Of a stretch of 64,000 bases of DNA, positions 30,251-62,376 are shown in pieces; the stretch's first letter is position 1, and each line of letters opens with the position of its first letter. This stretch comes from a virus. The stretch is taken from positions 32,918-96,917 of IMG/VR virus record IMGVR_UViG_3300026549_000035; one strand, given 5' to 3'. The notes under the pieces are model-generated. The model did no database searches, had not been told where the DNA came from, and was given only the letters and a program-made list of their open reading frames with translations. The position numbers were made by a program, and so were the translations under genes.

Positions 30251-30727
30251 ATGGAAGAAGTTCTACAATGGATAGGAACTCATTGGGTGGAATGGCTCTT
30301 TTGTTTAATTGGTATTGTATTGACGTTTTTAGCTAAACATCATGTTAAAGTATAGAAAGAGTTATTAGAAGAAAAGTGGAAAGATAAAGAAAAAAATATG
30401 TGTGGAAAAATAATTACTACTTTTGATACAAAAATTAGTGAAGTAGAAAAAAAATCTTCAGAAGAAGATGCATTGATTCATAATGAGTTAGATAAAATTA
30501 ATACAGAAGTAGATACTATTGAATCAGGTATCTTATCCATCCAAGGAAAGCAATTTAGAGAACTTTGTGAAGAGCTTTTAACACAAGATTATATTACTGT
30601 TGAAGAATATGAAGACTTTGAAGCAGAATATGATATTTATAAAAGCTTAGGAGGTAATCACAAAGGAGATGCTCTTCATGCTAGAGTTGTTGCAAAATAT
30701 GATAGATAGAAAAGTAAATCAGAATAA
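30251..30727 (+). CDS. second holin-like/lysis-associated membrane protein, about 158 aa
   Basis: RBS GATAGGAGGGG then ATG 30251. An N-terminal TM segment (WVEWLFCLIGIVLTFLAK) is followed by a coiled-coil C-terminus, with 2 TAGs, ending TAA at about 30727. Confidence 0.45.
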
Positions 30728-30772
30728 AAAAAAGGGCGATAGTCAATTAAGACTATCGCCCTTTTTTTTATT
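30727..30772. terminator. bidirectional terminator
   Basis: AAAAAAAAGGGCGATAGTCAATTAAGACTATCGCCCTTTTTTTT. Confidence 0.75.
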
Positions 30773-31253
30773 CTCCCCAATTATTAATATTCTAATAAAT
30801 AATATGGGCCCCAATACAAATAGCATCAACTTCATCTTGAGTAGCTTTAATTCCATAATTTTCTGCTACCCATGCCTAAGCCGCACGTTTCTGTTCGGGT
30901 CGTGTTTTACCTTTAATTCCAAGAGTAGATTTCCAAGTTCCTGCTAATACAGCTTCTACTGGAATATTCATATCAATACATAATTCATATAAGACTCCAA
31001 AAACCTCTGCGAGAATTTTAAAAGTCTATACATTATTTACTCGCTATCCATCCATATATATATCTTCTAAAATAACTTTATCTACATTTAATTTATTGAT
31101 TATATCTTGAACTAAACATCGAGCTTGATGTAATCTTTCACCAATATTTGGCTCTTCACTTAGGTCAAATTTTCCATATTCTATTAATTCATTTCCATCA
31201 AAAAGTGCCCAACCAGTTATTCTACTGGACTAATCTAATGCTAAAATTCTCAT
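30768..31253 (-). CDS. RuvC-like Holliday junction resolvase, about 161 aa
   Basis: MRILALDQSSRITGWALFDGNELIEYGK… is the RuvC/YqgF-family N-terminal catalytic motif. Several TAG sense codons are present. The start ATG overlaps the upstream homing-endonuclease gene's stop (ATGA). Confidence 0.7.
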
Positions 31254-32092
31254 TTTACTAACTCCTTTACTTGTTCTTCTGTTAGTTTATTTTTTGTACT
31301 AATTAGTTCAGGACATTCTTTCCAATGTAAAGGTTCTTTAGTAATAGGATGTTTTCCTGCACTTTTATTTTTTCCTCTAATACATGCTCGAATATTGCTT
31401 GAAGAAAAACCGTATTTTTTTTCTACTTCTGATGTTGAATTAAAAAATTCATTTAATTCAATGCAATATAAAGGTATCTTTATACCTTTTAAAATTTCAG
31501 TCCTGTTTTTTAAATTATTAATTTTTTCTTGATTTACCTAATCTAAATATAACCAATGTATAGGCTATCCATTTGGCATAAAACCAGCATATTTTAATTT
31601 ATTTTTACAGACTTTTTGAATTGTACTATTATCAATACCAGTTGCACGCTCTGCGCTTAAAGCACTTTCAAAAGTTAAATCTAGTTCAACACAATAGACA
31701 GGTTTATTAATAATTTTTTTAAAAGTACCATCATTCCACATCTAATAATTTAATTCACGTCGTTTTTCTTTTTGCTCATCAGTTAAAGTATTTGTATTTC
31801 CACCTGCAGTAATATTATAGCCATACTTTGGATGTTGTGTATTATATTTAGCTATTAATTCTTGTTCTTTCTAATTTGCTTCTTCTTTTGTTAAATTAGT
31901 ATATAATACTTCATGGTTAAAATTATCCCATCCATATTTTAAAATAGCTAAACTAAAATGACTATTAGGTTGTTTTCTTATATATTCTAATCCATTTTTT
32001 CCCCAACGAGCCTAAAGAGTTTGTTTCGTCTACCCAATATATTTTTTACCATTAATTTTATTAGTATGACAATAAATTTTATAACTATTCAT
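31250..32092 (-). CDS. GIY-YIG homing endonuclease with NUMOD-like repeats (free-standing), about 280 aa
   Basis: MNSYKIYCHTNKINGKKYIG[TAG]TKQTL[TAG]ARWGKNG…KYGYNITAGG, where TAGs sit at the conserved Gln positions of the YIGQT and LQxRW motifs. The C-terminal region carries two repeated DNA-binding modules. Confidence 0.8.
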
Positions 32093-32172
32093 TTTTATTT
32101 ACTTACCTGCCTTTCATAAGAATATGGAAAATAAAGTAAATAAATTTGAAAATTTTGACCAGTACTTCCAAA

Positions 32173-32382
32173 TTATTTGGAAGTACTGCCAAAACCTCCC
32201 GTGCGTTTGGCGTTTGTCCATTCAAAAGTGGCATCTTCTTCAACTGTTTTATAATTCAAGAAAACACCCTAGCCTATTTTATCACCTTTTTGCAAAATTA
32301 TATCTTGAGGAAATAAATTAATTATTTGAAAATAAATATGTCCTTCATTGTCGGGATTATTATAATAATCAGAATCAATAAT
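32173..32382 (-). CDS. dut: dUTPase exon 2 (motifs 3-5)
   Basis: IIDSDYYNNPDNEGHIYFQIINLFPQDIILQKGDKIG[TAG]GVFL…RTGGFGSTSK then TAA. The TAG falls at the invariant Gln of dUTPase motif 4. The stop lies in the loop of a 13-bp perfect palindrome CAGTACTTCCAAA/TTTGGAAGTACTG. Confidence 0.8.
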
Positions 32383-33824
32383 CATTTGTTATCCTATAGG
32401 CTTTTTATCCTACAGTTCTTATATTTTTCCATCATATAAGTTCGGCGTACATTTTCATTTTTAAATAAAAAATGTTGAACACTCTTGGAGGGATTATATT
32501 TATTCACCCCCTACGCTCTACGGTGTCTCTTCGCCTTTCGCAATCGAAGAGATTACCTCGGTATTGTCCTTTTTTTTTGGAGGATTTCACCGATTTTGCT
32601 CAATTTTTAGTCGGCATTATTTGTCACTATAAAATTACTTGTTTCTAATAATAAATCTTCTATTTTTAAATCCTTTAATTGCGTATAGGGGATACGAATT
32701 AAGGGAATATGATTTTCTTTACACCATTCGTTTTTGATTAAATCATGCCTATGAGTATATTCATAATTAAAAATAGTTTCCTAAAAATGCTGTATTCCAT
32801 CAAATTCAATTAAATATTTATTATTTATATAAAAATCAAAAGGTAATAATGTTTTATCTTTGCAGGTTTTAAATTTTTTTTCAATTTCAAAAGGAATATT
32901 ATTAGAAAATAATAATTGTTTAATTTTTTCATTTCCTTTTGAAATATTACTATGTTGTCCACAGCTAAGAGTTAATCCTTGTCGTAGACTAATTCCTAAA
33001 ACGTCTCTTTCAATGCCGCAGTTACATTTACAGCGCCAATAGATAGCTCCTCCGGCACTTCTTTTATTTGTTTTATATAAAACGTGCCACATTCCAAAAG
33101 TCTGTCCAGAGATATCTTTTTCGTTGGTTTTAGAAGATATTATTTCTTTTCCTGATAAATGATTATCATACCAAATTTTAGTAATCATTCCTCTAGAAAC
33201 ATTAAGTTCTCTAGCTAATTGATTAGATGTTTTTGTATTATAAGAATCTATAATATACTATTTATCTTCTTTAGATAGTTTATATTCTTTATTTTCATAA
33301 ACATCATAATTATATTTTTTAGCATAATTTAAAATCGCTGTTGAACTACAATTGTATTTTTTGCCCATTGCCTATGCATTTTTTAATATTTTATAATCTT
33401 TAATAAAATCCTCTAATTTTATATTATCTAATTTGTTATTATGGTTTTTAAGAATATAACCATGTGATTTTAAATAATTTGCAACGGCTGTTGGGCTACA
33501 ATTATATTTTTCACCTACTTTTTGACAACTTAATAATTCTTCATAATCTTTAATTACCTGTTCAATTGGAATATTTATAATTTTTATTTTTTTATTTTTA
33601 CTATTATCATAGTTAATTTTTTTAGCATGATTAAGAATTGAAGTTTTACTACAATTATACAATTCTGCCATTTTTCTAGAACTTTTTAATTTTTGATAAT
33701 TTTTAATAAATTCTTCATTAGTGCCAAAATCCATATATTCACATCCTTTCACTTATATATGAAAGAAGTTAATATTTTATTAGAAGATTTTTGACCAAAC
33801 TTTTTATAGTTAGGAAAAAAGTCT
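32383..33824 (-). mobile_element. self-splicing intron (group I-like, type 'A/B') in dut carrying a homing endonuclease gene
   Basis: It separates dut exon 1 (…SVRSSCPLKNWLILANGVG) from exon 2 (IIDSDY…), which together restore dUTPase motif 3. The 5' exon ends in T and the intron ends …GGATAACAAATG. The 3' end holds a roughly 190-nt conserved structured core (32383-32575), paralogous to the core at 35689-35885. Confidence 0.7.
32607..33752 (-). CDS. intron-encoded homing endonuclease: triple-HTH + zinc finger + Vsr-like PD-(D/E)xK nuclease domain, about 380 aa
   Basis: Track ORFs 33372..33752 and 32781..33188 plus read-through of TAGs give three NCS(K/P/S)T(S/A)(I/V)xN(H/Y)(A/L)KK HTH repeats. 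A CKCNCG zinc finger follows. The C-terminus …LIEFDGIQHF[Q]…D…K…C…IPLIRIPY is typical of DUF559/Vsr-fold homing endonucleases. Confidence 0.65.
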
Positions 33825-34175
33825 ACCGACTCCATTTGCGAGAATGAGCCAATTTTTTAAAGGACAAGAACTTCGAACAGATAATTGCAAATATTGATTT
33901 TTTGGAATATAAGCTTTAACTCCAGTAGGAACTAGAGTCGGCTTAAAATTATATTTTTTAGTTATTTCTTTTACTTCATCTAAGTCAAATAAATATCTAT
34001 CTCTAATTAAACCATATTTAGATAAATTCTAGACATTTTTAAAATAACTTGGAACAATTGTATCTTCGGCAACAACAAAATCATATCCTGCGCTATCTGC
34101 AGTTGCTCTTTTGGGTAATAAAGAACTATCAGGATATTTTGATATTAATTCAAATTTAGGATATGCTAAACTCAT
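33825..34175 (-). CDS. dut: dUTPase exon 1 (motifs 1-2)
   Basis: MSLAYPKFELISKYPDSSLLPKRATADSAGYDFVV…PTGVKAYIPKNQYLQLSVRSSCPLKNWLILANGVG. The start ATG overlaps the upstream gene's TAA (TAATG). Confidence 0.8.
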
Positions 34176-34423
34176 TAAAAAGTCACCTCATATTTTACAT
34201 CAATAGATCTATCAGGTTCTTTTTCATTATTAAAAACCTTTTTAGCCTTTACAACCTGATATTCATCTACGATTTCACCTTTTACTTTAATATATTTAGT
34301 AGTATAACTAAAAGCAGTAAGCTCAAAAGTTGGATCTGTTAATAATTCTTGATGTAAATCTTCAACTTCTTTTACTGTTGCTACTCTATAAGTAGTAACG
34401 TCATTAATTAAATATTTTACCAT
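34175..34423 (-). CDS. hypothetical protein, 82 aa
   Basis: ORF track. It contains no TAG and ends TAA. Confidence 0.45.
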   Translation of the reverse strand: MVKYLINDVTTYRVATVKEVEDLHQELLTDPTFELTAFSYTTKYIKVKGEIVDEYQVVKAKKVFNNEKEPDRSIDVKYEVTF

Positions 34424-35089: not shown

Positions 35090-35602
35090 TTAATGTTCTT
35101 TTTTTTCATTTTCTCTTATTTCCTTCATATTTAAAATTCTTTGATTGCGGCTTCCGCGCATAGCGAGGGTAATATCTCTTTCAGATAGTAAAAAAGGTCC
35201 TTCAATTAAATAATCTATGTTGTCAAAAACCATATCTATTTTAGGTTCTATCTTCTCAATTAATTCCTATAATTGCTCATAGGTATAGCCTGTCCAAACA
35301 TAAATTTTTATATTAGGATAAACCTTTCTTACTTCTGTGATAATCATCGCTGTTAAAAAAACATTTTCTCCACAAAGAGGTTCTCCACCCATAATACTTA
35401 AATTTCTTTGAACCCCATTGGCATGTAAAGCTTCGATAATTTCCTATAAAACTTCTGGAGTGAATTCTTTTCCGCCATTAAAATCCCAAGTCTAAGGATT
35501 CTGACAACCAGGGCAATGAATAGGACAGCCCTAGGTGAAGAAGCTAACATTAACTCCTTCACCTGCAGCAATATCATTTTTTATAATACCGGCATATCTC
35601 AT
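35090..35602 (-). CDS. nrdG: anaerobic ribonucleotide reductase activating protein (radical SAM), about 170 aa
   Basis: MRYAGIIKNDIAAGEGVNVSFFT[Q]GCPIHCPGCQNP… carries the CxxxCxxC radical-SAM motif of NrdG with 4 TAG codons. The start ATG overlaps the TGA of nrdD exon 4 (ATGA). Confidence 0.8.
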
Positions 35603-35688
35603 TCCATTACCCCCACGTGTTTAGCTCTATTATGGACTTCGTCTTGTTTTCCGAGATTAAATGCTTCGGTGTAATTACCAGTTAAATA
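35599..35688 (-). CDS. nrdD: NrdD exon 4 (C-terminal about 29 aa after the glycyl-radical Gly)
   Basis: YLTGNYTEAFNLGKQDEVHNRAKHVGVME then TGA. It joins exon 3's …EQLRRVTG to give the RVTGYL glycyl-radical motif. Confidence 0.7.
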   Translation of the reverse strand, partial: YLTGNYTEAFNLGKQDEVHNRAKHVGVME

Positions 35689-36925
35689 CAATTTTGTTAT
35701 CCTACAGGCTTTTTATCCTATAGTTCTTATAGTTTCCTATAAGTTCGGCGTACATTTTCATCTACGACTTTACGTTTAGATGTTGGACACTCTTGGAAGG
35801 ATTATATTTATTCACCTTCTACGCTCTACGGTACTTCTTTGCCTTTCGCAATCAAAGAAGTTACCTCGGTATTAGCATAAATTAAATTATATTTTCTTTT
35901 AAGATAATGATTATTATGATTTTTATATAAATAATTTCGTAATAAAACTATATCTTTTTGACTAGACCATCTAATTCTTTTTATAGAACCTTCTTTAGTA
36001 ATATTATTTTTATTTAAAGAAGGTAAAGCTTTAAAAAGATTTTTCTAAACCCAAGATATAATATTTTCATTTCCACAAAAACTTATTTCACAACATTTTT
36101 GACCAGAAGATCGAATATATGTTGTAAAACCTCCATCTCCATCAAAAAGACCTCTTAAAAAAGATGAATTGTATTTAGAATTAAAAATTGGAACTTGCAC
36201 AGAAAAAGTTTTCTTTTGAGTAATTCCCATTTTTTCTAAATCTAAAATTATTTTTTTACACCCTAAGCTAAATCGTTTATAATTTTTATTACTTGTATAT
36301 ACTTTATTAACAACTCCTAAATCTTGTTCTAATAAGTGTAAGATATCTTCATCTTCTTGTTTTAACGTTAATTCTAACTAAAACTTGCTTTTTTCTGGCT
36401 AATTAGTAATTGAACCATCACTAATAATCCATCCGAGCCAATAAGCTTTTTCTGGAGAGTCAATATTTTCAAAATAATTTTCATTTAAATCAGGGTTTTT
36501 TCTTTTTGAAGAAGAAATATTTTCACAATCTTTCACAATTTTTTTTATTCTTTCATAACTAATACTATATTCTTTCTACAATTTTATTAAAGGCTCATAA
36601 TTCATATAACGTTTTTTAATTTCTTCTTCCTATTCTTTTGTTAAAACATTTTTAATTTTAGCACCTATTCTTCTAGGGAGATTATTTATTCTCGCGATTC
36701 GACTAATTGTTGATGTGCTAATATTAAACTATTTTGCTATATCTTGAGTTGATATTTCTGGATGATTTAAATATAAATCAATAATTTTTTTGTCTCTATC
36801 CGTCATAATATAAAAAACTCCTTTACTGGTTTTTCTATTAAGACTTGAAAATTTAATCAGTAGCTTTCACCGATTTTGCCCAATAATATTTTAAAAAATT
36901 TCTTTTTTAAACGGCTATTTAATTA
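35689..36925 (-). mobile_element. self-splicing intron (type 'A/B') in nrdD at the glycyl-radical motif, carrying a LAGLIDADG homing endonuclease gene
   Basis: The 5' exon ends …ACAGGT and the intron ends …GGATAACAAAATTG. The roughly 190-nt 3' core (35689-35885) is about 85% identical to 32383-32575, with compensatory base changes in two stems. Confidence 0.7.
35808..36806 (-). CDS. LAGLIDADG homing endonuclease with N-terminal HTH, about 332 aa
   Basis: …AYWLGWIISDGSIT… and …LRGLFDGDGGF… are the two LAGLIDADG motifs, with an N-terminal sigma-70 region-4-like HTH. Roughly 7 TAG codons are present, and the C-terminal about 25 codons overlap the conserved intron core. Confidence 0.75.
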
Positions 36926-37453
36926 ACCTGTTACTCTACGAAGTTGTTCTATATGAGTTCCACCGCAGCGAGGACAAGTATCATTAATTTCACCTTCCCA
37001 ATCGCAATCTAAACATTTATCAGAAGGAACATTTATTGCAAAATAAGGAATATCTTTGTCCATAGCATAGTTAACTATTTGTTCTAAGGCTTTTGTATTA
37101 TGAACGGCAGACGCATCTAATTCTACATAAGTGATACAACCTGCAGAAGAGTATGGAGTTAATTGACTTTCAATGTCAATCTTATCAAATGGGCTAATAG
37201 AATACCAAACTGGAACATGGATACTATTAGTAAAGAACTCTTTATCAGAAACATTTTTAATAATTCCATATTTTTCTCTAAATTTTTTCAATGCTGTATA
37301 ACATAGATTTTCTGCTGGGGTATAATAAACTCCGAAGTTAAGAGAATATTGCTCTTTGAATTCAGCGCAACGCTTTTTAAATAACTCTTCAATTCTTTTA
37401 GCAACTTCCATACCTTTTTTTGTGGTATGATCGCAACCAACTAAGATCTAAAG
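36926..37453 (-). CDS. nrdD: NrdD exon 3
   Basis: …(ILV)GCDHTTKKGMEVAKRIEEL…CLDCDWEGEINDTCPRCGGTHIEQLRRVTG. This is the C-terminal Zn-ribbon of class III ribonucleotide reductase. The 5' boundary is approximate. Confidence 0.65.
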
Positions 37454-38686
37454 AGTCTCTGCGAGACCTAACTGCATTTTTTATACCCTTCTTTTCAGAA
37501 TATTTAAAGGGATTAGACTATACCATAAATTGATTTATAAATTTCTTGATTGTCTAATTTATTTTTTCTTATTGGTAGTTTAAATTGATTAGTAATTTCT
37601 TTCCATGTAACTCCTCTAGAAATATCTCCTACAGTATTTTTTCCTATGTTATAAGAATTAGCAATTTCCTATAAAGTATTACTAGTAAATATAAGCTAAT
37701 AACAAATATTTTGGACTTCTAATTCAGATAATTTATTCTAATAAACATTCTTTTTTATATTTTTTCTAATAGGATAATTTAAATCCTTAGGACACCAGCT
37801 GTTTTTTCCCCTGTTTATTTCCCCAACAGTATAATTACTTATACCTAAAGTTAAACCGATATCTACAATAGATAAATTTAAATCATTTTTTAACATATCT
37901 ATAATCTTTTTAACTAAATCATTATTTAATTTAGTATGATTTGGGGTTTTTCTTATTGGATAATCTAAATTAGCTTCATAAAAACTTCGCCCTCTATTAA
38001 TATCACTAATACAAGTGAGACTTACTCCAAAATCATTTGCAATTGTTTGAAATGTTATATTACTATTTTTTAACAAGTCTTTAATTTCCATTTCAGCAGA
38101 ACCGCATATTAATTGTTTAGAGGTGCTTCGTTTTCCTCCTTTAGTCATATTATATCCTTTTCCAGAAGTATAATATGCATCAGTTATTTTTATTTGATAA
38201 ATTTCTCTTTCATCTAATTTTTCTAATGGAATAAAATCTTCTACAACCTCTATTGAAAAATTATCAATTCCATATTTTTTTAAAGCTCGATGAAAATACA
38301 ATTCATCATTTTTGGTATCCTATAAATGTTTATTAATTCTATCTTGTAATCTACAGGTAGTCTAACCAATATAAATTTTTCCATTAATTTTATTAGTAAA
38401 TTTATAAATTAAACCAGTTCTCATAAAAATAATTGCTCCTTTTTTACTTTTTCATATTATTATGAAAACTGGGACAATCGCATTTTTCAATTTTGTCCAT
38501 TATAGTCGTTGAACGTTCCTCTGTTCTAGAGGCTTCGCTGCGTCTGGTTGCCCAATCCTTAACGATTTTACCATATCTTGGTCGCTAACCTTGCCACTTA
38601 TATATTCCTATATAAGCTTGGTTGTTAAGGCTCTAAGGGTGTTCCCGCAATTTAGGACATTTATAGTGGGCCAGTGTTAGGCTTTA
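37454..38686 (-). mobile_element. group I intron (distinct subtype) in nrdD carrying a GIY-YIG homing endonuclease gene
   Basis: Exon 2 ends …ALKHGTLAVG (…CAGTGGGT), complementary to an internal guide-like GGCCCACTA. A roughly 260-nt 5' core with hairpins (GTGGGTTAAAGCCTAACACTGGCCCAC…) precedes the ORF. After the ORF comes a roughly 60-nt 3' tail …GTCTCGCAGAGACTCTTTAG. Confidence 0.6.
37513..38424 (-). CDS. GIY-YIG homing endonuclease, about 303 aa
   Basis: MRTGLIYKFTNKINGKIYIG[TAG]TTCRLQDRINKHL[TAG]DTKNDELYFHRALKKYGIDNF…GYNMTKGG, followed by two repeated HTH modules (…IANDFGVSLTCISDINRG…, …LTLGISNYTVGEINRGK…). Confidence 0.8.
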
Positions 38687-39023
38687 ACCCACTGCCAAAG
38701 TTCCATGTTTAAGAGCAGAACGTATACCCTCTTCTGGAATGTAACCTGCCATAGTATGATTTTCATACATAAATTTAGCAGAATTTGGATTTTGAGAACA
38801 AATCCATTCAAAACGTTCAAGTAAAGAATCTTTTGCATCAAAAATAGCTTGATCCAAAATCTTTAAAAATACTTCTACAATATCATCATCATATTCACTG
38901 TCAAAAACTTCTTTTGCTTCCATTGCTAAAGTAGGAAGGATAATTGTAACAGGACAAATATTTCCTCTACCATCTTTTAACTGACCAAAACCATTAATAT
39001 CCCAACCATTTGCAGTTCTACAC
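38687..39023 (-). CDS. nrdD: NrdD exon 2
   Basis: CRTANGWDINGFGQLKDGRGNICPVTIILPTLAMEAKE…ALKHGTLAVG. Joined to exon 1 it restores the conserved MGCR motif (…STMG|CRT…). Confidence 0.65.
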
Positions 39024-39830
39024 ATGTTTACCTAATGTTGCCATTAGCACTGACTATATCTTCTATCTTTTTATTAAGATAGCCTTCCGCTTCGAATATG
39101 TGCCTATCTCATATTCTACTCCCTTACATTCATCAGGGATAGTCGATACAGGTTTTTAATCTTTATCATATTTCCAAATATATCCATAAGCTGTTTTTTG
39201 TTTATTATTTAAACAATAATTAATTCCAACATTTTTAGATTCATTTCCTAAAAATCTAGCTGCTTCTCTTGCTGTTTGGAATCTTTTTAATAATTGTCCA
39301 TTTTTATTATACATTAAAACATCAGCAACATATTTAGAATTTTTATTACCTTTTCCTTTTTCTGAAATAATTTCTTTAATATAATCAGAATGTTTATGAT
39401 ATTCAATACCGCCTAGATCAGCATTATATCCATTTGGTAGTAAAGAATTATACTTTTGAATATATTCACGTTCTATTTTTGATATTTCATTATCTTTTAT
39501 ATTTGTTAAAAGTATTTCAAAAGAAAAATTTTCAATTCCATTTGCCTATATTGCTTTTCCTATAAATGATTTAGAACTTGGTTTTTTATGTTCTGCGAAT
39601 CGTTCATATGGATTTCTATTTGTAATACCTATATAATTTTTATTATTTAATAAATTTGTAATTTTATATAAACTATACATTTTATCACCTTCTCTTTTTA
39701 AGATGATAAAGATTAAACTTCCCACGGTCTCATCCGCATGGGACCTAACCGTTAGCGCAGTCACATTATTTGCGGCCGCACACCCTCAGGCGAGGTTCAA
39801 AAGGTTTTAGATGAGCTATAGTTTCCACTT
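39024..39830 (-). mobile_element. group I intron (IA2-like 'GCTAACGG' family) in nrdD carrying a GIY-YIG homing endonuclease gene
   Basis: The 5' exon ends …ATGGGT. The intron carries …GCGCTAACGGTTAGGTCCCATGCGGATGAGACCGTGGGAAG… (compare T4 td …AACGGGGAACC…AATCCCGTG…). After the ORF come CCTGTATCGACTATCCC…ATAGTCAGTGC then a hairpin, ending G. Confidence 0.65.
39157..39680 (-). CDS. GIY-YIG homing endonuclease, about 174 aa
   Basis: MYSLYKITNLLNNKNYIGITNRNPYERFAEHKK…NGYNADLGG…KTAYGYIWKYDKD. The start is anchored by track ORF 39546..39764. The 3' end coordinate is approximate. Confidence 0.75.
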
Positions 39831-41096
39831 ACCCATCGTTGAGAAATAAGTTCTTGGGTCATTTCGATCATATCCAGCATTACCAGACCAATCAACATTA
39901 GCATAATTTGGATATAATCTCTTAGCAGTAGATTGTAAAGCTAATTGATATAAATCGTAATTGGGGTCTCCCGGTTTACGATTAACTCCCTTCATACATT
40001 GGAAAATTCCACAAGGGAAAATTGAAGTTCTATAATGTTTTCCTAATCCTTCAATAGACACATCTAATAAAGCTTTAATTACCATTCGACCTTCTGAACT
40101 AGTGCAAGTTCCATAATTAATAGAAGTAAATGGAAGTTGATTTCCACTTCTGGACTGTAGAGTATTTAAATTATGATACATACCTTCTGCAGCTTGGTGG
40201 GCTTCTCTTTTAGTCATTTTAATCGCAAAATTATATACTCGCTCATTATATGCTTTCCATTCTGGATCATCAATGCTATAATCTTTCGCATTTTTTGCCA
40301 TATTGACAATTTCATAATCGGCTTGAGACCAATTTTTATCTTCAAGGAATTCCCAACCATCTATATAGTGCTTTACAAAACTTTTACGCACATATGGAAC
40401 CATTGTCCAATCTAAATGAGTTGCAGAAACTCCACCAAACTATTGTAAGCTTTGTAACTAGAAAATAACCGCAACCAATTGGAAAGCAGTTTCTAATGCT
40501 CCAGCAGTTCGAACATCCGTTTGACGAGTGTTAAATCCTTCTGCTAACAAATCATCAAAAGGAATACTTAAACAGTTATGAGATCCAACATAATAACTAC
40601 CTAAATCATGGATATAGTTTCTATTATTAATATGATTGTAACAAGCTTTATCAGATATAATAAAATCTAAAGCTAATTTTTTAGCTACAACATCCATTGC
40701 TTCGCCAGTTCTTCCTCCAAAAGAGTTCTCATCTACATTAGCATTTTGCTTTTGAATGTTTTTTGCATCTAGCTTTTCTCTAATAGCATCAATAAAATCA
40801 TGTTGATAATTACGAGCTACCTCTTTTTTATAACGATATCGAATATATGCACGAGCCACATCAAGACGCTCAGAGCGCATTAAATATTCTTCTACTAAAT
40901 CTTGAATTTTTTCAATTGTGCAGAGGTCATTATCTTGAGATTTAAAATAATCTTCAATTTCATCTGCAATATCTTTAGCAGTATCTTCTTCATAGAGTTT
41001 TCCATCTACTTCAAGAAAAGCAGCATTAATGGCATCTATAATTTTTTGTTTATCAAATGTAACAAGAGTTTTATCTCTTTTTTCTACATTAATCAT
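39831..41096 (-). CDS. nrdD: NrdD exon 1 (ATP-cone + N-terminal catalytic region), about 422 aa
   Basis: RBS AAGGAGTG then MINVEKRDKTLVTFDKQKIIDAINAAF… is an ATP-cone. …NRNYIHDLGSYYVGSHNCLSIPFDDLL…LQSRSGNQLPFTSINYGT…YFSTMG follows. Track ORFs 40458..41096 and 39816..40403 are in frame and joined via TAGs. Confidence 0.75.
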
Positions 41097-41436: not shown

Positions 41437-41847
41437 TAATTCATATGGAGATATATAAAACATTTCTGGTTTATAGTCTGCATATAAAACAGTTCTTTTC
41501 TAATAATAAATTTTTATATCAAGATTGTTATTTAAACAATACCAATGATATTTTACATTTTTAAATTCTGGTAAAAAACGATATTCTTGTCCAGGCTTAA
41601 TAATTATATTTTTTAATATCATTTTTTCTAAAGGAATTTCTATATAAGCACCATAATCACCAATAACAACACGAGAATATCCTTTAGCTAAAAAATGACC
41701 ATATTTATCATATATTTTACAATTAAGATTTCCGTTCAAAGAGAAACAAGACGGAAGTTCTTTTTCGTATTGTCTTCTTTGTTTTATAGATAATTCTTTC
41801 GGTAAAGGTTTATAATGATATTGATCTACTAATTGTTGAATTGTCAT
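41437..41847 (-). CDS. hypothetical protein, about 136 aa
   Basis: Track ORF 41500..41847 extends through TAG. The start overlaps the dnaE stop (TAATG). Confidence 0.4.
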
Positions 41848-43250
41848 TATTCTCCATTCTCTCCTTTATATCTTTCACTCTAAAGAATTAAACTACCATC
41901 ATCATTAACTTCTAAAATATGATATAATTGATGCCCAACAGAAGAAGCATATTTTTTAGTTACAAAAGTATCTCCAAGTCTAATTCCTTGCACCATAATC
42001 ATATTACCTCTATTAAAAAAACTTTTTTCTATTACATGTTTAACTCCGTCTAATCCTTTTTCTGAAATTTGTTTATCAAATAATGCAAAATATTCTTTTC
42101 TGAATTTTACATTAACAACTCCGTTAGTCGTTAAAATTGTTACTGTACCTTTTGTCTTATTTTTAGCAATACAAGTTCCACAAATACGACAAAGTTTAAA
42201 GATATGAATAGGCTTATTCTTTTTATAAAAGGTTTTCTCTATTTCAGGTTCTTCAGGTAAATTATAAAAATTTTTTAAACCATATCTTTCAAAATCAACC
42301 TTTGCTAATTCATGTTCATGTTTATAGAAGCAAAGAACTTCCATTTCCCAAGCAGATAAATTCGCCTTTCCCGCATATTTATCCCAATCTGCTTTAAATA
42401 TTCGAGTATTTAATTCAGATAAAATTTCTTGTCCATCTTGCGCAAGCCATTCTCTAAAAACATCCATATAAGATTGATATATTTTATCCCATTTTTTCAT
42501 ATTTAACGTATTATCTGAGTTAATTAAATTAGCGACTTCTATTTCTACTAAAAAATCAATTGCTCGATTATCAACATGATAACATACTGAATCATTCTTT
42601 ACTTTACATATAGCTTTTAAATATCTATTAAATTCATAAACTCTAAAAGCTAATTTTCTTTCTTCTGTATCTAATGGAACTAAGTCTTGTTTTAATAAAG
42701 TTGGAAAATTTTGTAATGTTAATCTAGCTTTTTTATCACAAGTTTCCCATATATACCAAGCCATAGCTTTTTTTCTATCCATCATTTCATCAAAAGCTCC
42801 CGCTTTAATTAATGATATCATAGGTTGTTTTTTTGGTTTTACTTTTTGATAGAAATCTTTTATTGAACTATATGGACGATTTTTAATAATCTGATTCACA
42901 AAATCATCGTTTACATTTAATAAAGCTTTCATTCCAAAAAGAATTCGATTGTTTTCTACATCAGGTTTAAATCCAAAATCAGAAGTATTAATATTTACTA
43001 GACTAACATTAATACCTGCATTAATAATTTCATTCAAAGCTTTTGCAACTTTACCATAATCAGTACTTGCTGCTTTTTTTTGAGTTTCATTTTCTTCTGA
43101 TTCTAATACATTTTCATCATCGTCATCTTCTTCTAATGAACCACTGTTTACAACTAAGCAAGCCGTATCCCAATATATAGGATTCCAATGAGTTCCTAAA
43201 TATAAAGTTTGCGCTCCAACAAAACTATATGCTAAAGCGTGTATGCATAA
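41847..43250 (-). CDS. dnaE: DNA polymerase III alpha (DnaE-type) exon 3
   Basis: …CIHALAYSFVGAQTLYLGTHWNPIYWDTACL… aligns with DnaE HSAAYALVSYQTAWLKAHYP…, and the C-terminal region runs to TAA at about 41847. The 5' boundary is approximate. Confidence 0.65.
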
Positions 43251-44462
43251 TTAATTTATTACTGACTATTTTTTACAGGTGTTGTAGTGAAGTTGGCAAA
43301 ACTTCTTACCTGCACACTGTTTCCCAATGCGTATCAATAGCATCAGTACTCTCTGTCTAACCAGAGATAGTCGATACAACATTTCTTATTTAAAAGGTTT
43401 ATTATATTATTTATTTCTTAAAGGATATTGATATTCTTTTTGTTTATGCGAACGTCCAGAATTAATATTTTTTACAGTAGAATAAGATTTTCCCCATTTA
43501 TCAGCAATTTTTTTTAATGATATATCAGAAGTTAAAATATCTTTAATAATTCCTTTTACCCAAATTTCATTATCTTGTTTTCTACAGCCTTTATTACAAA
43601 GAGGATATTTTTCTTCTTTATCATAAAAATATTTTCCTGTATTTATCATAGATAAAAATCCAGCGCTTTTTATATTAAAATCTTTTTGAATAGAACTATA
43701 TTTTTCTCCAGATTTTATTCTTTTTTTAATTTCTTTAATTTCTTTTTGAGAAAATTTACTTTTAGCATTTTTCTTTAAAGGATAATCAAAGTCAGGATTA
43801 AAAAAATTAGTTCCTGTATTGATATTTACTAAAAAAGTTCTTTTTAACTTTGGAGAATACAAATTCTCAATATCATCATATTCTTCATCATTTAACAATC
43901 TTTTTTGAATATCTTTAATCTCATTCTCTGTAAATAATTTTGAGCGTTTTAATTTTTCTTCATAGCTTAAAGGAGGCTTTGGACATCCCTCTCCACCAAT
44001 AGTTACATTATATCCATTTTCATCTTTTAAAGAATGATAATAAGCAATAAAAAATTTTTCTCTTTCATTTATAAAATCTTGACTTTCTTCGTCTGCAATC
44101 TCTTCTAAAACTTCATAATCAAAATTTTCTATGCCATATTTTCTAATTGCGCAATGAAAAGGAAGCCAATAGCCAAAAGCTTTTTCATTAAATGATTCAC
44201 TTTTATGTCCATTATATCTTTTTTGTAAATTATTCGTTTGTCCAATATAACAATGTCCATTTATTTTATTTGTAAATTTATAAATATAAGTCATCTTTTT
44301 TCACTCCTCTCATGGATATTTGAAAAATATAATATCTCTTTTAAATAGATTTGTCACGAGATTTTACCCTCGTTAGCAATTATTTTATTTATTTGCCAAA
44401 TAAATTATCAAAATAATTACCCCCGTGATGAGCGGGTTAAGTGTGTAAGCGCCATTACAACG
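43251..44462 (-). mobile_element. group I intron (IA2-like family) in dnaE carrying a GIY-YIG homing endonuclease gene
   Basis: It splits the conserved DnaE motif GY(S/G)F|N-K-S-H-S-A-A-Y. The 5' part carries …GCTAACGAGGGTAAAATCTCGTGACAAATC…. The 3' part carries …TTGTATCGACTATCTC…AAAAATAGTCAGTAATAAATTAATTATG. Confidence 0.6.
43407..44294 (-). CDS. GIY-YIG homing endonuclease, 295 aa, TAG-free
   Basis: ORF track: MTYIYKFTNKINGHCYIGQTNNLQKRYNGHK…GYNVTIGGEG…, with repeated C-terminal modules. Confidence 0.85.
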   Translation of the reverse strand: MTYIYKFTNKINGHCYIGQTNNLQKRYNGHKSESFNEKAFGYWLPFHCAIRKYGIENFDYEVLEEIADEESQDFINEREKFFIAYYHSLKDENGYNVTIGGEGCPKPPLSYEEKLKRSKLFTENEIKDIQKRLLNDEEYDDIENLYSPKLKRTFLVNINTGTNFFNPDFDYPLKKNAKSKFSQKEIKEIKKRIKSGEKYSSIQKDFNIKSAGFLSMINTGKYFYDKEEKYPLCNKGCRKQDNEIWVKGIIKDILTSDISLKKIADKWGKSYSTVKNINSGRSHKQKEYQYPLRNK

Positions 44463-45665
44463 CTAAATGAATAACCCATCTGAGGTCCAGCTCCGTAACG
44501 CCAAACATATTGACCTAATTTTTCACTTTTAGCTTGCCGCAAAACCTTATCTCTTAATTCAGGAATTTTATCCATCAATTTTTTACCAACCACTTTACGA
44601 GCTTTGTTAGCATCTCCTAAACTAAAATTACAAATATTAGGATCCATTAACATTTTCATAAGCTGCTCTTGGCTTGGTGGAACTCCATATGACTATTTAA
44701 AATATGGTTCTAATATTTTTTGTTCAGTTTTAGTTAAACCAAAATCATCCATTTCTTTATACCATAAAGAAATATCATTTTTATAACGATAATATTTATC
44801 TATAGGACGTTCTTCGCCTTCTTCACCCATCAATCTCATTAATCCATTTGCATCAGCCATTTCAAGAATAGATTGAGGTTTAAGAAGTTTAGCGGTTTTT
44901 ACACCCTCTGTGCCTTCAAATTGGAAGGTATTAATAACAGACATCTTTCCTAATGCTTCCCATATTTTTTTATCAGTTTCTATTGGAAGAACATTTGGAT
45001 GAAGATATTTATTATAAATTTCTCGAAGAGATAAATCTTTTTCAATTTCACCGTCTTCTTGAAGAAATTGAATTGTTTGAACAATTTTATCTTGTGCTTC
45101 AGTTACAAGAAAATCATATTTTGTTAATCCCATATATTCGGCATCATGTAAATCATATTGAGTAATAATTTTGCCTTTTGGAGTTTTCATAAAAGCACTA
45201 TGTTCAAATGGATCACCATCAAATAAAACAATTCCAGAAGCATGAGAACTTCTTTTATTTATTGTTCCTTCAATAGCTAAAATAATATCTAATAATCCGG
45301 GGTAATTATTTACTTCATAAATAAAAGTTTTTACAGGTTTTCTATGTTTTTCTTCATTACCATGTACAACATCTTTAATACTCCATAAAAATCCTCGTTC
45401 TTGTGGAATTAAAGAAGCCATATACTGGGCTTGGTCAACATCGATACCATCTGGATACTCTTCACTACGATAACCTCTACATGCGGTTAAAACAGCAGAC
45501 TTAGAACCTTCTGTCCCAAAAGTAGAAATACGAGCACAACCAAAAATTTCTTTTGCCCATTCTGGAACATCATTATTAAACATTTTACTGCGTTCAGTTG
45601 CAATTTTTTGAAGAATTAAATTACATTTAGATGGACATATATCTATATCAATATCCTTTTATTAT
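44463..45665 (-). CDS. dnaE: DNA polymerase III alpha (DnaE-type) exon 2
   Basis: DIDIDICPSK…ISTFGTEGSKSAVLTACRGY…AIEGTINKRSSHASGIVLFDGDP…GLTKYDFL…LGDANKARKVVGKK…GYSF. These are the DnaE core motifs (PDIDIDF, RHASTHAAGVV, AMGKKK). Boundaries are approximate. Confidence 0.65.
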
Positions 45666-46815: not shown

Positions 46816-48206
46816 AGACTACCGAGTTCGATTCTCTCATCATTTAAATATCTAAAGAAAGGAAGCTCCCATTCTATTGGATCTAATTGAGTTATTCCCA
46901 TAAGATAATGGTTTAACGCAGCGCAAGAAGAACCTCTACCTGCGCCAACCATAGATCCTGAATCCCATATTAAATCAATATAATGTTGTAAAGTATTAGG
47001 ATAACGAAACATATTTGTTTCTAATTTTTCACTAATAATACTTTTTACTCTTGCTTCTTCTTCTAATTCATCTATATACTTAGATTCACCAGTTTCATTA
47101 TAATTATTCCAACCATGACCAATTTCATCTAATTTTTCCCAACACTGATTTACCCAATATCTATCTTGAATATCATCTGATGTAAATAATTTTTTTAATG
47201 TCGGATAGTTAGTCATATCATCGGCATAATCATTATTAACACTCCACCATGCTGATTTAGGATAATCTTTAACTTCTACAGAAGGAATGTCTTGTTTATG
47301 AAATAATGAATAAGGCTTTATTTTATTTTGTATATCTAATGTATTTTTTAATATCCACTGACAATCTTCAATAGGATAACTATTTTTTAATAAATCAAAT
47401 ACTTCTGAATAATTCATTAAATAAGTAAATTCATAAAAGGCATCTACTTCTCGGTCGCCTTCTTTTGAATTTAAATATGCTTTATGGACTTGTCTTTCTT
47501 GTTTTGTTAAATAATGTGCGTCTGTGCCTACCACCAATTTAATATCATATGCTTTCGATATTTTTAATAAAGCTTGATTAACTGAAATTTGATCAGATGA
47601 AGTGCCCGGCGCACACTCAAGATAAAAATCATCTTTAAATAAATCTTTACAAAATAAAAGGAAATTATGAATTTTTTGATAATAAATCATAGCATTATTA
47701 TCATCATTAATTTTTCTAGCCATTAAATATAATAATATATTCTAAGGAAGTTCTCCTCCTATACATGCAGATGTTGCAATTAAATGACCAGAAAATTTAT
47801 TTACAATCTCTTTTAATTCTGTTTTTAAAGTAGGAACACGTTCAATTTTACGATCTACATAAGAATTTATCCATGCCCTTGAGCTTAATTCTCTAAGTGC
47901 TCTATGACCAATGGCATCTTTCGCAACTAAAATAAAGTGATAATATTTTTGACCTCTATCTCGAGATTCTGTTAAATAAATCTCATTCCCAAGCGCAAGT
48001 TTAAAATTAGGATGTTCTTTCTAAATAGACTTCATATGTTTTTCCGCTCTTACATGAGCAGATAAACATTCGTGATCTGTTATAGCAATACCAGATAAAC
48101 CTAACTCTATTGCTTTATCAATTAAACCTTCGGGCTGATTAATACTATCTATTAAGCGAATATTACTATAAATTGTATGATTATGACAACCAAAATAAGA
48201 CTGCAT
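46816..48206 (-). CDS. dnaE: DNA polymerase III alpha (DnaE-type) exon 1 (PHP domain + fingers), about 465 aa
   Basis: MQSYFGCHNHTIYSNIRLIDS…GLSGIAITDHECLSAH… is a PHP domain. Track ORFs 48021..48206 and 46779..47723 are in frame and bridged by TAG-containing sequence (…GAGRGSSCAALNHYLMGITQLDPIEWELPFFRYLNDERIELGSL). Confidence 0.7.
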
Positions 48207-48269
48207 ATTCTCTTTTTCCGCCCTTTCTTTTTTATTCTTTTTATATTATAAAATATATTTTTATAAAAG

Positions 48270-61470: not shown

Positions 61471-62376
61471 TTAATTATACAATAAAAATTTACTTTTTTC
61501 AACTATTATATCTTGATATGTTAAATTATCTATTGAAATATAAGGAATTCTTATTATTGGAATATTATGTTTAATACAATACTAATTTTTATATTTGTCA
61601 TGCTATATTACTTTTTCATATAAAGTTTTTGCTTTTTCATCACTAATGTTTTCTCCATACTTTACCGGAAAAAAATGATGCTATCCATCTACTTCAATAA
61701 TATATTGATTATTTACAAAAAAATCAAAACGAGCATAATTTTTTGTATCTGAAAAAAAACAATCTTTAAAAGTTTTTTCTTTTTCAAAAGGTATATTATG
61801 TTTTTTTAATAACTAAGCAATTTTATACTCTCCTTTTGATTTTTCTCCACAGACAGAACATAAATGCCCATTTTTTCTGGTTAAATTATATTTGATTACT
61901 TCTTGAATATTTCCGCAATCAATACATGAACATACCCAATAAACAGAGCCATCTTTTCCTCTTTTTTCAGATGGAAATAAAGCTTGTAATTGTCCAAAAA
62001 TCTCCCCAGATATATCTTTCATCGTTGTTGTATTTTTTATTTTACAAAATGGACACATTTGCTATTTTTCTTTTCTAAAATCTATAGCGTCTAAAATATG
62101 CCAATTATTACAATCACAAACGGTTAAAAATGATAAACCTCCACTTGTTGTTCGATTAGCTCTTCGTAAAGGTGCTACATAAGTAAGATATCCATTTTTC
62201 TATTTTTCTAAAAATTCTGGAATTTTTGCCTATTTTGCAGGATTAATAACAGTTAAATAATGAGTATTTTTCTATACTTTTTTATTATTAATTAAAATAG
62301 AATCATAAAATTTTTTTTTCTATTCCTCTGTCATTGATAAATAATCTTTTATTGAAATTTCCTATATATTTACCAT
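61471..62376 (-). CDS. free-standing homing endonuclease-like protein: zinc finger + Vsr-like PD-(D/E)xK domain, about 301 aa
   Basis: RBS GGAGG then MVNI…. Track ORF 61813..62058 (…SVYWVCSCIDCGN…) continues through TAGs to …YIIEVDG[Q]HHF…D…K…YCIKHNIPIIRIPY…. It is paralogous to the dut-intron endonuclease. About 12 TAGs are present. Confidence 0.6.

Follow-up and report, generated by a model that had tools for sequence, protein, structure and literature searches.

In a 64,000-nucleotide stretch of phage DNA (the window), the dUTPase gene (dut) is interrupted at motif 3, its most conserved motif, by what is very probably a mobile group I intron that encodes an EDxHD-family homing endonuclease, and the same reading attributes the palindrome around the dut stop codon to a GIY-YIG endonuclease cassette, a selfish element separate from the intron. 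The intron and its nuclease are explained by known families and are not a new kind of system. The features on which this interpretation is based are as follows.

31253..32175, minus strand: free-standing GIY-YIG/NUMOD homing-endonuclease cassette, identified by Pfam, PHROG and its presence or absence among relatives
32148..32199, minus strand: predicted RNA hairpin whose 24-bp stem has one bulge and whose loop holds the dut stop codon
32173..32382, minus strand: dut exon 2, 69 codons (IIDSDY...GGFGSTSK) and TAA (32175-32173)
32383..33824, minus strand: insert in dut, 1442 nt, absent exactly from loci L003 and L004
32383..33824, minus strand: group I intron as read from that insert, with a predicted 5' splice site after U33825 and G32383 as terminal G
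32383..32603, minus strand: ribozyme core (P3, P4, P5, P6/P6a, P7, P7.1, P3', P8, P7', P9, P9.1 and the terminal G)
32609..32621, minus strand: internal guide sequence, read directly from the DNA
32607..33734, minus strand: intron ORF, 375 aa, with an HTH array, a putative zinc module and a predicted EDxHD/Vsr-like nuclease
33825..34175, minus strand: dut exon 1, 117 codons ending ...LANGVG (GGT); tblastn places Dut residues 1-117 here
35689..36925, minus strand: second intron of the same ribozyme family, in nrdD, sharing 82% identity with the dut core across 186 nt
61471..62376, minus strand: free-standing paralogue of the intron ORF, 301 aa with ten TAG codons (BLASTP 39% identity over 189 aa, E = 9e-40)

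The dUTPase gene and the cassette at its 3' end

Joining of exons 1 and 2 produces a 186-aa dUTPase that matches the trimeric dUTPase family of Pfam (PF00692; 5.6e-16, 58.9 bits versus a cut-off of 22) and PHROG 135 (5.5e-34), and that possesses all five dUTPase motifs (AGYDF, VRSS, GVGIIDSDY, GDKIGQ and RTGGFGSTSK, conserved in A3). Uninterrupted homologues are 91-92% identical to the joined product over its full length, with LANGVGIIDSDYYNNP unbroken across the junction; in all, Dut has more than 7900 homologues. In the syntenic intron-less loci L003 (96% nucleotide identity) and L004 (92%), the alignment continues to 33824 and resumes at 32382; the break is at GGAGTCGGT^ATTATTGAT, exactly the predicted junction, where both alleles read GGAGTCGGTATTATTGAT. 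The profile matches, intact homologues and intron-less alleles together bear out the proposal, made in a sequence-only reading of the window, that the two exons rebuild one dUTPase, and Pfam, PHROG and the homologues assign both exons to this single protein rather than to different proteins. The same intron site is occupied in the diverged dut of L002 (Dut 52-58% identical) and in the short, different dUTPase type (ANCVG^VIDADY) of L005, L006, L007 and L024, exon 1 ending in GTCGGT in each case; L120 and L121 carry a variant of the intron target site, GGGGTTGGTATAATTGA.

The cassette downstream is an insertion that precisely separates the final sense codon of dut from the TGA/ATGA overlap with a RuvC-like gene. 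Its ORF (32092-31250; 280 aa with six TAG codons) matches GIY-YIG and I-HmuI_NUMOD-like in Pfam and PHROG 314 (6.5e-31). The cassette is absent from L003, L004 and L120, and homologous cassettes with 63-80% identity are located between dut and ruvC in L111-L116. Free-standing phage GIY-YIG and HNH endonucleases, such as seg and mob of T4 and mobE of Aeh1, spread by intron-less homing. The present cassette resembles these genes in its location between two conserved genes, its presence or absence among close relatives and the short altered tract that flanks it (the 3' end of dut), but differs in that its start builds a 24-bp hairpin around a new dut stop codon.

The palindrome had been reported as a separate feature with arms of 13 bp. 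It is indeed perfect, with TAA in its loop, but each arm has 14 nt (32160-32173 and 32175-32188, 100% complementary about the middle A of TAA), the arms are the core of the 24-bp hairpin, and instead of standing by itself the palindrome marks the junction of the GIY-YIG cassette with the end of dut: the 5' arm of the hairpin is dut coding sequence and the 3' arm consists of the first bases of the cassette. Because the start of the cassette is the inverted complement of the end of dut, the dut mRNA is predicted to end in this hairpin, with the loop holding the new stop codon. The hairpin has a free energy of -28.3 kcal/mol, whereas shuffled sequences average -8.9 (z = -8.2) and none of 200 is as stable. 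Folding of the 3' UTR, which had been suggested as a check of terminator function, produced this stable hairpin and no canonical terminator; a terminator scan did not flag the stem, which is followed by AAAUUUAUUUAC with no U-tract directly after it, and the same scan did find a bidirectional terminator at 30724-30771. An intrinsic (rho-independent) terminator was rejected as an explanation of the palindrome for the missing U-tract and the result of the scan. The 29-nt palindrome has no exact match in IMG/VR, where only distant relatives of the GIY-YIG protein are present.

The hairpin most likely acts at the level of RNA, where it may form a barrier at the 3' end, stabilise the transcript or insulate dut from the endonuclease gene. 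Related cassettes retain a weaker stem, which is weak in L114 (z -0.25) and L112 (z -1.65). A DNA-level signal, either a binding or cleavage site of a dimeric protein or a cruciform, would suit a perfect 29-bp DNA palindrome and enzymes of the I-Bth0305I type, which are dimers that prefer pseudopalindromic sites (PMC3239194), but is improbable, given that the two arm changes in L111, which has the closest related cassette, are G.U-compatible only on the dut-sense RNA strand and break the DNA palindrome, that more distant cassettes keep a stem-loop here and not the palindromic sequence, and that the allele without the endonuclease gene (L120) has the 5' arm alone.

The protein encoded within the intron

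The intron ORF had been given a start at 33752, which is an upstream in-frame GTG; the ORF is present, but the start that matches those of its homologues is the ATG at 33734, 90 nt downstream of the 5' junction. The three tandem HTH repeats described earlier are three close repeats (16-22 identities over 36-37 aa) in an array of four units (about residues 5-44, 56-95, 106-145 and 155-194), of which the fourth, divergent unit gives the best Pfam HTH match (matches to the ORF: HTH_11, 8.9e-9; HTH_50, 4.2e-8); a structural model contains four three-helix units in this array. The reported CxCxC knuckle is part of a CxCxC...C module (about 200-262) that is predicted to bind zinc, whose residues C235, C237, C239 and C258 are shared by all 33 aligned relatives. 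In the nuclease domain (about 265-365), D300, E310, D312, H316, D331 and K334 are invariant in aligned relatives, and 29 of 33 retain E285. D and H are 16 residues apart compared to 17 in I-Bth0305I, and the candidate E/D/H/D mapping onto that enzyme is based on spacing.

Of the earlier assignment to a DUF559/Vsr fold, the Vsr part is retained, as a C-terminal Vsr/I-Bth0305I fold was matched in a model of the homologue P0001 (70% identical), but the DUF559 label is not, as neither the intron ORF nor its paralogue matches Pfam DUF559 (PF04480) at E<=1. The profile comparison with Vsr that had been suggested did not reach it: neither 3R3P nor Vsr was found by phmmer or by a 34-sequence profile among all PDB sequences at E<=10, and the link is one of fold only. 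PHROG matches of the ORF are labelled 'homing endonuclease' and 'intron encoded nuclease', and homologues match DUF5889 marginally (26-31 bits versus a gathering score of 27.1). The architecture had been called rarely described, but it is not rare in nature: protein search (E<=0.001) found 1385 relatives, and IMG/VR contains 543 confirmed stretches. These relatives are mostly mis-annotated, often as 'HNH endonuclease'. The free-standing paralogue noticed in the same reading is confirmed by BLASTP and shares the zinc module, the nuclease domain and the PHROGs of the intron ORF; its N-terminus is unrelated and has no HTH repeats, it matches DUF2726 weakly (0.012), it is flanked by complete genes, and there is no ribozyme core near 61471-62376.

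The prototype of the EDxHD family is I-Bth0305I, the endonuclease of a recA group I intron in Bacillus thuringiensis phage 0305phi8-36 (PMC3239194, PDB 3R3P). Both proteins are encoded by phage group I introns in conserved DNA-metabolism genes, and both combine N-terminal HTH/NUMOD-type repeats with a C-terminal Vsr-like nuclease in which conserved acidic and His residues, candidates for the active site in the dut-intron ORF, have a similar spacing (D196 and H213 of I-Bth0305I; PMC3239194). The dut-intron ORF is longer (375 versus 266 aa), with four HTH units instead of two, and an additional invariant CxCxC...C module separates its HTH array from the nuclease; the catalytic domain of I-Bth0305I contains no bound zinc in its crystal structure, and the I-Bth0305I ORF interrupts P5 whereas the present ORF is in L1 (PMC3239194). 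The host genes also differ (dut here, recA there), recoded TAG codons are found here, and there is no HMMER-detectable similarity between the two proteins. Escherichia coli Vsr (PDB 1CW0/1VSR) is a mismatch-repair nickase that stands alone and holds a zinc site within its fold, whereas the Cys cluster of the dut-intron ORF is a separate module upstream of the nuclease; unlike Vsr and DUF559 proteins such as NGO0050 (3HRL), the dut-intron ORF has no Pfam DUF559 or Vsr match. In the homing site, a pseudopalindrome noted by eye (GAGTCGGTATTATTGATTC, with 6 of 9 pairs symmetric) is not beyond chance.

TAG is read as Gln throughout the window, where the length covered by ORFs of 100 aa or more rises from 30.8 kb in the standard code to 65.8 kb when TAG counts as sense. 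Exon 1 has one in-frame TAG (34031-34029) that is read as Gln, and the TAG of exon 2 (32271-32269) falls on the invariant Gln of dUTPase motif 4. The intron ORF is in four pieces under the standard code and is open only with three TAG codons as sense (33374-33372, 33260-33258 and 32783-32781), a dependence on which the sequence-only reading did not remark. ARAGORN found no tRNA in the window, so the TAG suppressor is not encoded within it. An ORF that would be truncated by three TAG codons in cells without a TAG-Gln suppressor, in a window without tRNA, could now ride along in an immobile intron as a degenerate passenger, or serve there as a maturase-like or DNA-binding helper. This is quite unlikely, however, because TAG is a sense codon throughout the window, with Gln commonest or joint-commonest among homologues at two of the three TAG sites of the ORF, because every candidate catalytic or zinc residue is present in the ORF and unchanged in 33-46 relatives that are 53-70% identical, and because presence or absence among 92-96% identical genomes argues for recent mobility.

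The phage is large (177.5 kb) and TAG-to-Gln recoded, and probably infects a Firmicute; it has at least four intervening sequences and at least nine endonuclease genes in 64 kb. Its polymerase is of the DnaE type and its virion protein is closest (41%) to those of Enterococcus EF1/VRE9 and Lactococcus 949-like phages. Genome size, recoding and intron load prompted consideration of a crAss-like (Zeta group) origin, which was rejected because of this polymerase and the nearest relatives of the virion protein. Zeta-group crAss-like gut phages have TAG/TGA reassignment and up to 14 introns per genome (PMC7886860), and the present phage is like them in its use of TAG as sense and its very dense introns and homing endonuclease genes. 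Megablast of positions 26000-50000 against a phage collection returned only short intron-core matches; since no match in the searches made covers most of a query, a close relative appears to be missing from that collection.

The predicted ribozyme

Judged from its sequence, the insert in dut is a group I intron of a subgroup-IA-like type. P1 consists of seven pairs between AGUCGGU at the end of exon 1 (ending with U33825) and the guide GCCGACU (32615-32609), with G32615.U33825 at the splice site, and P10 pairs the guide AAUAAU (32621-32616), directly 5' of the P1 guide, with AUUAUU of exon 2. The intron ends in ...AACAAAUG (G32383), and a G precedes exon 2 in all relatives. The guide GCCGAC and the exon end GTCGGT are conserved in L002, L005, L006 and L007, and the exon end only in L024. 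There is no P2. Compensatory changes were found in 30 of 38 core pairs (RNAalifold). When the named core structure with the P3-P7 pseudoknot is considered, its 54 pairs are 88.7% paired, with both-side changes in 34 of them, and P3 and P7 are each 100% paired across the aligned cores. The covariation score of the core is 0.506 compared to 0.195 for shuffled alignments (0 of 500 reached it), and slid controls for the named core structure are at most 43% paired with covariation scores of at most 0.118.

Rfam identified no intron family in the whole window at the gathering threshold or in 32100-34200 at E<=10, and gave only spurious miRNA-like matches, on the palindrome; with 32375-32630 searched alone, RF00028 matches at 28.3 bits (E 1.3e-5), below its gathering score of 50. 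The weak score is probably due to the 1.1-kb ORF in L1 and the IA-type core. Cores 68-81% identical to that of dut split terL, helicase and other genes in known phages, cultured ones among them, with 68-77% identity for the cores in genes of Staphylococcus, Clostridium and crAss-like phages; in Staphylococcus phage Rosita, a 'dUTPase' annotation beside an intron-like core is located in the head-tail module. The second intron in the window, which is absent from L003/L004, is located directly after the glycyl-radical Gly codon of nrdD (RRVTG^Y) and contains an HTH-LAGLIDADG ORF (36806-35808).

The intron ORF is placed in ribozyme loop L1 and overlaps the guide sequence, such that its last codons and stop are the guide region (AAU AAU GCC GAC UAA); the C-terminal extensions (...ADNKSSKIGE) of some homologues are the translated P3/P4 region of the ribozyme. 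This arrangement is unusual and could hinder the formation of P1. The dut intron is like subgroup-IA phage introns (those of T4 td/nrdB/nrdD and Staphylococcus phage Twort, and the terminase introns of Bacillus, Lactobacillus and Staphylococcus phages) in interrupting a nucleotide-metabolism gene at a highly conserved motif, in possessing a P7.1 extension, and in meeting a stop soon after the 5' splice site with the endonuclease gene looped out of the core. It differs from them in the location of its ORF in L1 over the guide instead of in the P6, P8 or P9 loops, and in the absence of P2. The literature searched yielded no description of a dUTPase gene that hosts a group I intron.

It is very unlikely that dut is dead, disrupted by insertion of a nuclease gene with no splicing and its halves left as decaying remnants. 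Public gene calls at L117 do break the locus into small separate genes of 121, 375 and 70 aa, and Rfam at the gathering threshold recognizes no intron; but both exons are in frame and retain the stated 91-92% protein identity to intact homologues, the same interruption recurs, always with intact exons, in the diverged and other-subtype dUTPases, and the non-coding 3' part of the insert is a conserved, covarying group I structure with a guide that pairs with both exon ends. Almost no weight can be given to a fractured gene of the intein type, with dUTPase halves joined as protein or acting as separate subunits, which recalls the split-gene and intein contexts in which the EDxHD family was partly first reported (PMC3239194), because Pfam detects no intein/Hint signal in the ORF or the exon ends, exon 1 continues as RLFS to a stop five codons past the junction, the ORF has its own start in a frame that is not continuous with the exons, and the ribozyme is complete.

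Proposed mechanism and significance

With dut interrupted by a mobile group I intron, the primary transcript would fold into a subgroup-IA-like ribozyme (P1, P3-P9.1 and P7.1, without P2), in which the guide AAUAAU-GCCGACU aligns both exons. Guanosine-initiated splicing after U33825, followed by exon ligation after G32383, would restore ...N-G-V-G^I-I-D-S-D-Y of motif 3 and permit production of a normal dUTPase. The four HTH units and the Cys4 zinc module are predicted to hold the endonuclease on the motif-3 DNA of an intron-less dut, the C-terminal nuclease to cut that allele, and recombinational repair from an intron-bearing genome to copy the intron in. Cutting next to the insertion site is supported indirectly, by the exact presence or absence of the insert among 92-96% identical genomes and by the occupation of one site in diverged dut genes. 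The GIY-YIG cassette would be a second selfish element, independent of the intron.

A more elaborate joint reading, in which translation excludes splicing, recoding gates the endonuclease and the GIY-YIG cassette is a portable 'gene-end' module, is conceivable but doubtful. Because the ORF occupies L1 and runs through the guide in its five final codons and stop, a ribosome that ends the ORF would occupy P1/P10, and a given transcript could either be translated into endonuclease or have its dut exons spliced, but not both. Because the ORF requires TAG to be read as Gln, the recoding state of the phage would decide whether endonuclease is made, and only recoded hosts could harbour the element. 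The cassette, for its part, would supply dut with a new stop codon and with the second arm of the hairpin, which matches the end of the gene by complementarity, and would recreate the ATGA overlap with ruvC.

To our knowledge, I-Bth0305I is the only EDxHD homing endonuclease that has been characterised. The dut-intron nuclease is a member of a large phage family with a longer DNA-binding array (four HTH units and a zinc module), and its predicted natural target is known to the base (CTCGCAAATGGAGTCGGT^ATTATTGATTCTGAT), so that studies of specificity are directly feasible. With an intron at its catalytic motif 3, dut joins the genes colonised by phage group I introns. On the practical side, public gene calls fragment this dut, and ORFs break at TAG under the standard code. 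The case is a clear-cut natural instance of selfish elements having adapted to a non-standard genetic code.

The dut gene and its predicted group I intron

The two dUTPase pieces on the minus strand are one gene, dut, that carries a precise insertion.

34175-33825, minus strand: dut exon 1, the N-terminal 117 residues of dUTPase, last residues LANGVG (GGT, last base 33825)
33824-32383, minus strand: insert between the dut exons, 1442 nt, holding a 375-codon reading frame
33734-32607, minus strand: the intron ORF, 375 codons
32382-32173, minus strand: dut exon 2, IIDSDYYNNP... to GGFGSTSK-TAA (TAA at 32175-32173)

The reading frame of exon 1 reaches a stop five codons beyond the junction. The 186-aa product of the joined exons matches Pfam dUTPase (5.6e-16) and PHROG 135 (5.5e-34), and uninterrupted proteins from public metagenomes are 91-92% identical to it over the full length, unbroken through LANGVGIIDSDYYNNP. 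Two related contigs, L003 and L004, which are syntenic with the window (NrdD, NrdG, three small genes, dut) and 96% and 92% identical to it in DNA sequence, encode uninterrupted dUTPases; the alignments end at 33824 and restart at 32382, and both contigs read GGAGTCGGTATTATTGAT, the window's exon ends exactly joined. The sequence-only reading had proposed that LANGVG of exon 1 and IIDSDY of exon 2 rebuild dUTPase motif 3, which these homologues and junctions bear out. An ENA contig (ERZ27252065 k141_7166, 177,555 bp) is 100% identical to the window. Dut residues about 45-80 (window 34040-33945) are an insertion of ~35 residues between motifs 1 and 2 (PSYFKNVQNLSKYGLIRDRYLFDLDEVKEITKKYNF) that varies among homologues and is missing from the short dUTPase type of L005-L007, three of the IMG/VR contigs discussed below.

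The insert itself is predicted to be a group I intron. No Rfam family matched the insert at the gathering threshold; with the 3' 256 nt alone, RF00028 aligned over model positions 27-253 with 28.3 bits (E 1.3e-5), below its gathering score of 50. All seven bases at the end of exon 1, AGUCGGU, pair with intron GCCGACU (32615-32609) to form P1 with a G.U wobble at the splice site, the AAUAAU immediately 5' of GCCGACU forms P10 with the six bases that open exon 2, and the final intron base is G. Non-coding stretches that interrupt phage genes share 68-81% identity with the 220-nt 3' region; the interrupted genes include terL of a Staphylococcus phage, a helicase gene of the crAss-like phage cr118_1, and others in Clostridium/Clostridioides phages. 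From 12 such sequences RNAalifold recovered P6/P6a, P7, P7.1, P8, P9 and P9.1, with compensatory changes at 30 of 38 pairs. A fuller structure, written by hand with P3, P4 and P5 added and with P3 and P7 crossing, was scored on seven sequences: it was 88.7% paired (100% in both P3 and P7) and 34 of 54 pairs had changed on both sides, while none of 500 shuffles reached the score and slid controls were 35-43% paired. To our knowledge, the crossing of P3 and P7 is a trait of every group I intron. P2 is absent from the dut intron, and the P7.1 hairpin points to subgroup IA. Loop L1, 13 nt long in the Staphylococcus terL intron, a relative that lacks an ORF, contains the entire 1.1-kb ORF in the dut intron; the guide sequence is the last codons of that ORF (AAU AAU GCC GAC UAA), and some homologous ORFs continue past the guide to end ...ADNKSSKIGE, which is translated P3/P4.

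The same site is occupied in diverged dUTPases. A contig with a Dut only 52-58% identical (L002) carries the intron, with a homologous ORF, at precisely this codon, and in four IMG/VR contigs (L005, L006, L007, L024) an intron of this kind splits a short dUTPase of another type at ...ANCVG|VIDADY. Exon 1 ends in GTCGGT in all five, and the GCCGAC guide is found in L002, L005, L006 and L007. Of 80 loci retrieved from IMG/VR for the nuclease family, the four short-type contigs have the ORFs most closely related to that of the window, and the remaining 76 are in other contexts; there is thus a sublineage specific to dut motif 3 inside a far larger family. The dut intron of L024 (2395-4090) carries two endonuclease-like ORFs in tandem, one of EDxHD type (2465-3340) and one (3451-3948) in which an HNH-like motif was recognized by eye. 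In two more distant relatives, L120 and L121 (about 1842-1875), the intron-less dut reads GGGGTTGGTATAATTGA at the insertion site, with four differences from GGAGTCGGTATTATTGA; these variants may be naturally resistant sites.

The putative intron endonuclease, its paralogue and TAG as a sense codon

TAG is a sense codon (Gln) throughout the window, and was translated as Q in all protein analyses. ORFs of at least 100 aa on both strands cover 65.8 kb with TAG as sense versus 30.8 kb under the standard code, approximately a doubling, and the 3309-codon frame at 4927-14853 contains 96 TAGs; TAG density is higher in the plus-strand structural genes than in the minus-strand replication genes. The intron ORF stays open only with readthrough of three TAG codons, and under the standard code it becomes four ORFs; at two of these three positions no residue is commoner than Gln among the homologues. 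In dut, one TAG occupies the position of the motif 4 Gln (GDKIG-Q-G), an invariant residue that all 12 aligned homologues share. A search of the window found no tRNA gene, suppressor tRNA included, and therefore the TAG suppressor would be located elsewhere.

Pfam recognizes only helix-turn-helix (HTH) families in the intron protein (HTH_11, 8.9e-9; HTH_50, 4.2e-8), and PHROGs 559, 9084 and 7140 ('homing endonuclease', 'intron encoded nuclease') match it. An AlphaFold model of its 70% identical homologue P0001 (pLDDT 84.7) has four three-helix units, then a small beta module bearing the invariant C235-x-C237-x-C239...C258, then an alpha/beta domain. Repeats 1-3 of the intron protein share 16-22 identities over 36-37 residues, and since shorter dut-specific relatives (275 aa) have two units, the array has grown by tandem duplication. 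The tandem HTH repeats and the CxCxC knuckle of the earlier reading thus stand, the number of units being four in the model instead of three. In the nuclease domain D300, E310, D312, H316, D331 and K334 are invariant among relatives and E285 is nearly so; their spacing resembles that of D196/N208/H213/D222 of I-Bth0305I, the prototype EDxHD homing endonuclease, to which they would correspond. Pfam DUF559, the label proposed earlier, did not match the intron protein, DUF5889 matched marginally among its homologues, and sequence and profile searches of the PDB found neither 3R3P (I-Bth0305I) nor Vsr. I-Bth0305I has 266 aa with two NUMOD-like HTH motifs, and the crystal structure of its catalytic domain is without zinc (PMC3239194); in the window protein the HTH array is longer and a Cys4 module is added. 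The architecture, earlier called rarely described, is not rare in nature: a search at E<=0.001 gave 1385 relatives, of which the best 120 are mostly full length (53-70% identity), and IMG/VR has 543 confirmed stretches. The nuclease part matches 314 cultured-phage records, many labelled 'HNH endonuclease', none of which covers 80% of the protein. In L007, the dut-intron nuclease (286-1365) and a neighbouring free-standing paralogue (1857-2612) have two FGxLxV...CxCxCG...SCG zinc modules in place of the HTH array, and thus the DNA-binding part of the nuclease family is modular.

62376-61471, minus strand: paralogue of the intron nuclease, 301 aa, 10 TAG

This protein has the zinc module and nuclease in common with the intron protein (39% identity over 189 aa, E 9e-40) and an unrelated N-terminus. 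Because its neighbours, a winged-helix gene and a PHROG-2367 gene, are complete and no ribozyme core of the dut-intron family was found nearby, the earlier description of it as free-standing is reasonable.

The palindrome and the GIY-YIG cassette

32175-31253, minus strand: GIY-YIG cassette, 923 nt

The dut stop codon does lie within a perfect palindrome, as had been noticed; it comprises 14+14 nt centred on the middle A of the TAA. Folded as RNA, it extends to a 24-bp hairpin with a single bulge (-28.3 kcal/mol, z -8.2), which is not a canonical terminator because no U-tract follows the stem. L003 and L004 are without window 32188-31256, and their dut ends GGTTCTACTGACAAGTGA, the TGA overlapping the ATG of a RuvC-like gene; dut of L120, also cassette-less, ends CAGTACTTCCAAATGAGAAT. 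The window junction reads CAGTACTTCCAAA, then the inserted segment (TAATTTGGAAGTACTG ... GIY-YIG ORF ... GTAAAA), then TGAGAAT. Compared with these cassette-less ends, the cassette therefore lies exactly between the last dut sense codon and the stop/start overlap. It supplies a new TAA for dut and recreates the ATGA overlap with ruvC, and the 13 bases that directly follow the new TAA make up the palindrome's second arm. Six further contigs have GIY-YIG homologues (63-80% identity) at the same dut-ruvC position, and in all six a stem-loop centred on CCAAAUAA(U)UUGG is retained, with varying strength. The two arm differences in one of them, L111, permit G.U pairs solely on the sense RNA. In L112 and L113 both arms are downstream of a different dut end, and thus the hairpin travels with the cassette; we read it as a putative RNA element at the boundary of dut and the endonuclease gene. 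Between the window and L003, six of the last 15 dut bases differ while the flanks are 96% identical, the pattern that would be expected from co-conversion during homing.

Homing endonuclease load and overall assessment

nrdD is interrupted by three intervening sequences into four exons (35602-41096, minus strand).

About 41096-39822, 39025-38687, 37474-36926 and 35688-35602, minus strand: nrdD exons
35689-36925, minus strand: second intron with a ribozyme of the dut-intron family (82% identity between the two cores)
31250-32092, 37513-38451, 57537-58433, 62890-63744 and 3678-4298: five GIY-YIG-type genes, four by Pfam GIY-YIG and the last (3678-4298) by sequence motif only

The first nrdD gap differs between the window and L004, the latter having a GIY-YIG ORF of its own at this place, and the GIY-YIG ORF of the second gap (38451-37513) is missing from L004. 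The intron at 35689-36925, not present in L003 or L004, lies immediately after the codon for the glycyl-radical Gly (RRVTG|YLTG), and its ORF (36806-35808) is of HTH-LAGLIDADG type. Five GIY-YIG-type, two EDxHD-type and one LAGLIDADG homing endonuclease genes in 64 kb are an unusually heavy load. A DnaE/PHP-type DNA polymerase (41847-48245, minus strand) appears to be divided among at least three ORFs (46779-48245, 44417-45658, 41847-43250), which suggests further introns or inteins.

A virion protein is closest (41%) to those of Enterococcus EF1/VRE9 and Lactococcus 949-type phages, which suggests a Firmicute host and argues against a crAss-like phage. Two adjacent paralogous virion structural genes (3-881 and 897-2570, plus strand; PHROG 2729) have long identical stretches, e.g. 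FTMEDALISP and DMPAEF.IPNCKIQSNFTFTMASSGDP, and the second is extended at its C-terminus by a long acidic stretch. Between convergent genes, a perfect 24-bp inverted repeat (30721-30774) with A and T runs on its flanks resembles a bidirectional intrinsic terminator.

Overall, the initial observation is confirmed and its interpretation is supported with corrections. All components belong to known classes (group I introns, EDxHD homing endonucleases, free-standing GIY-YIG endonucleases). The searched literature yielded no description of an intron in dut, and so dut is counted as new among host genes; the other new points are the extended DNA-binding architecture, the L1 ORF that overlaps the guide, the recoded TAG codons in selfish genes, and the hairpin that the cassette builds around the dut stop.
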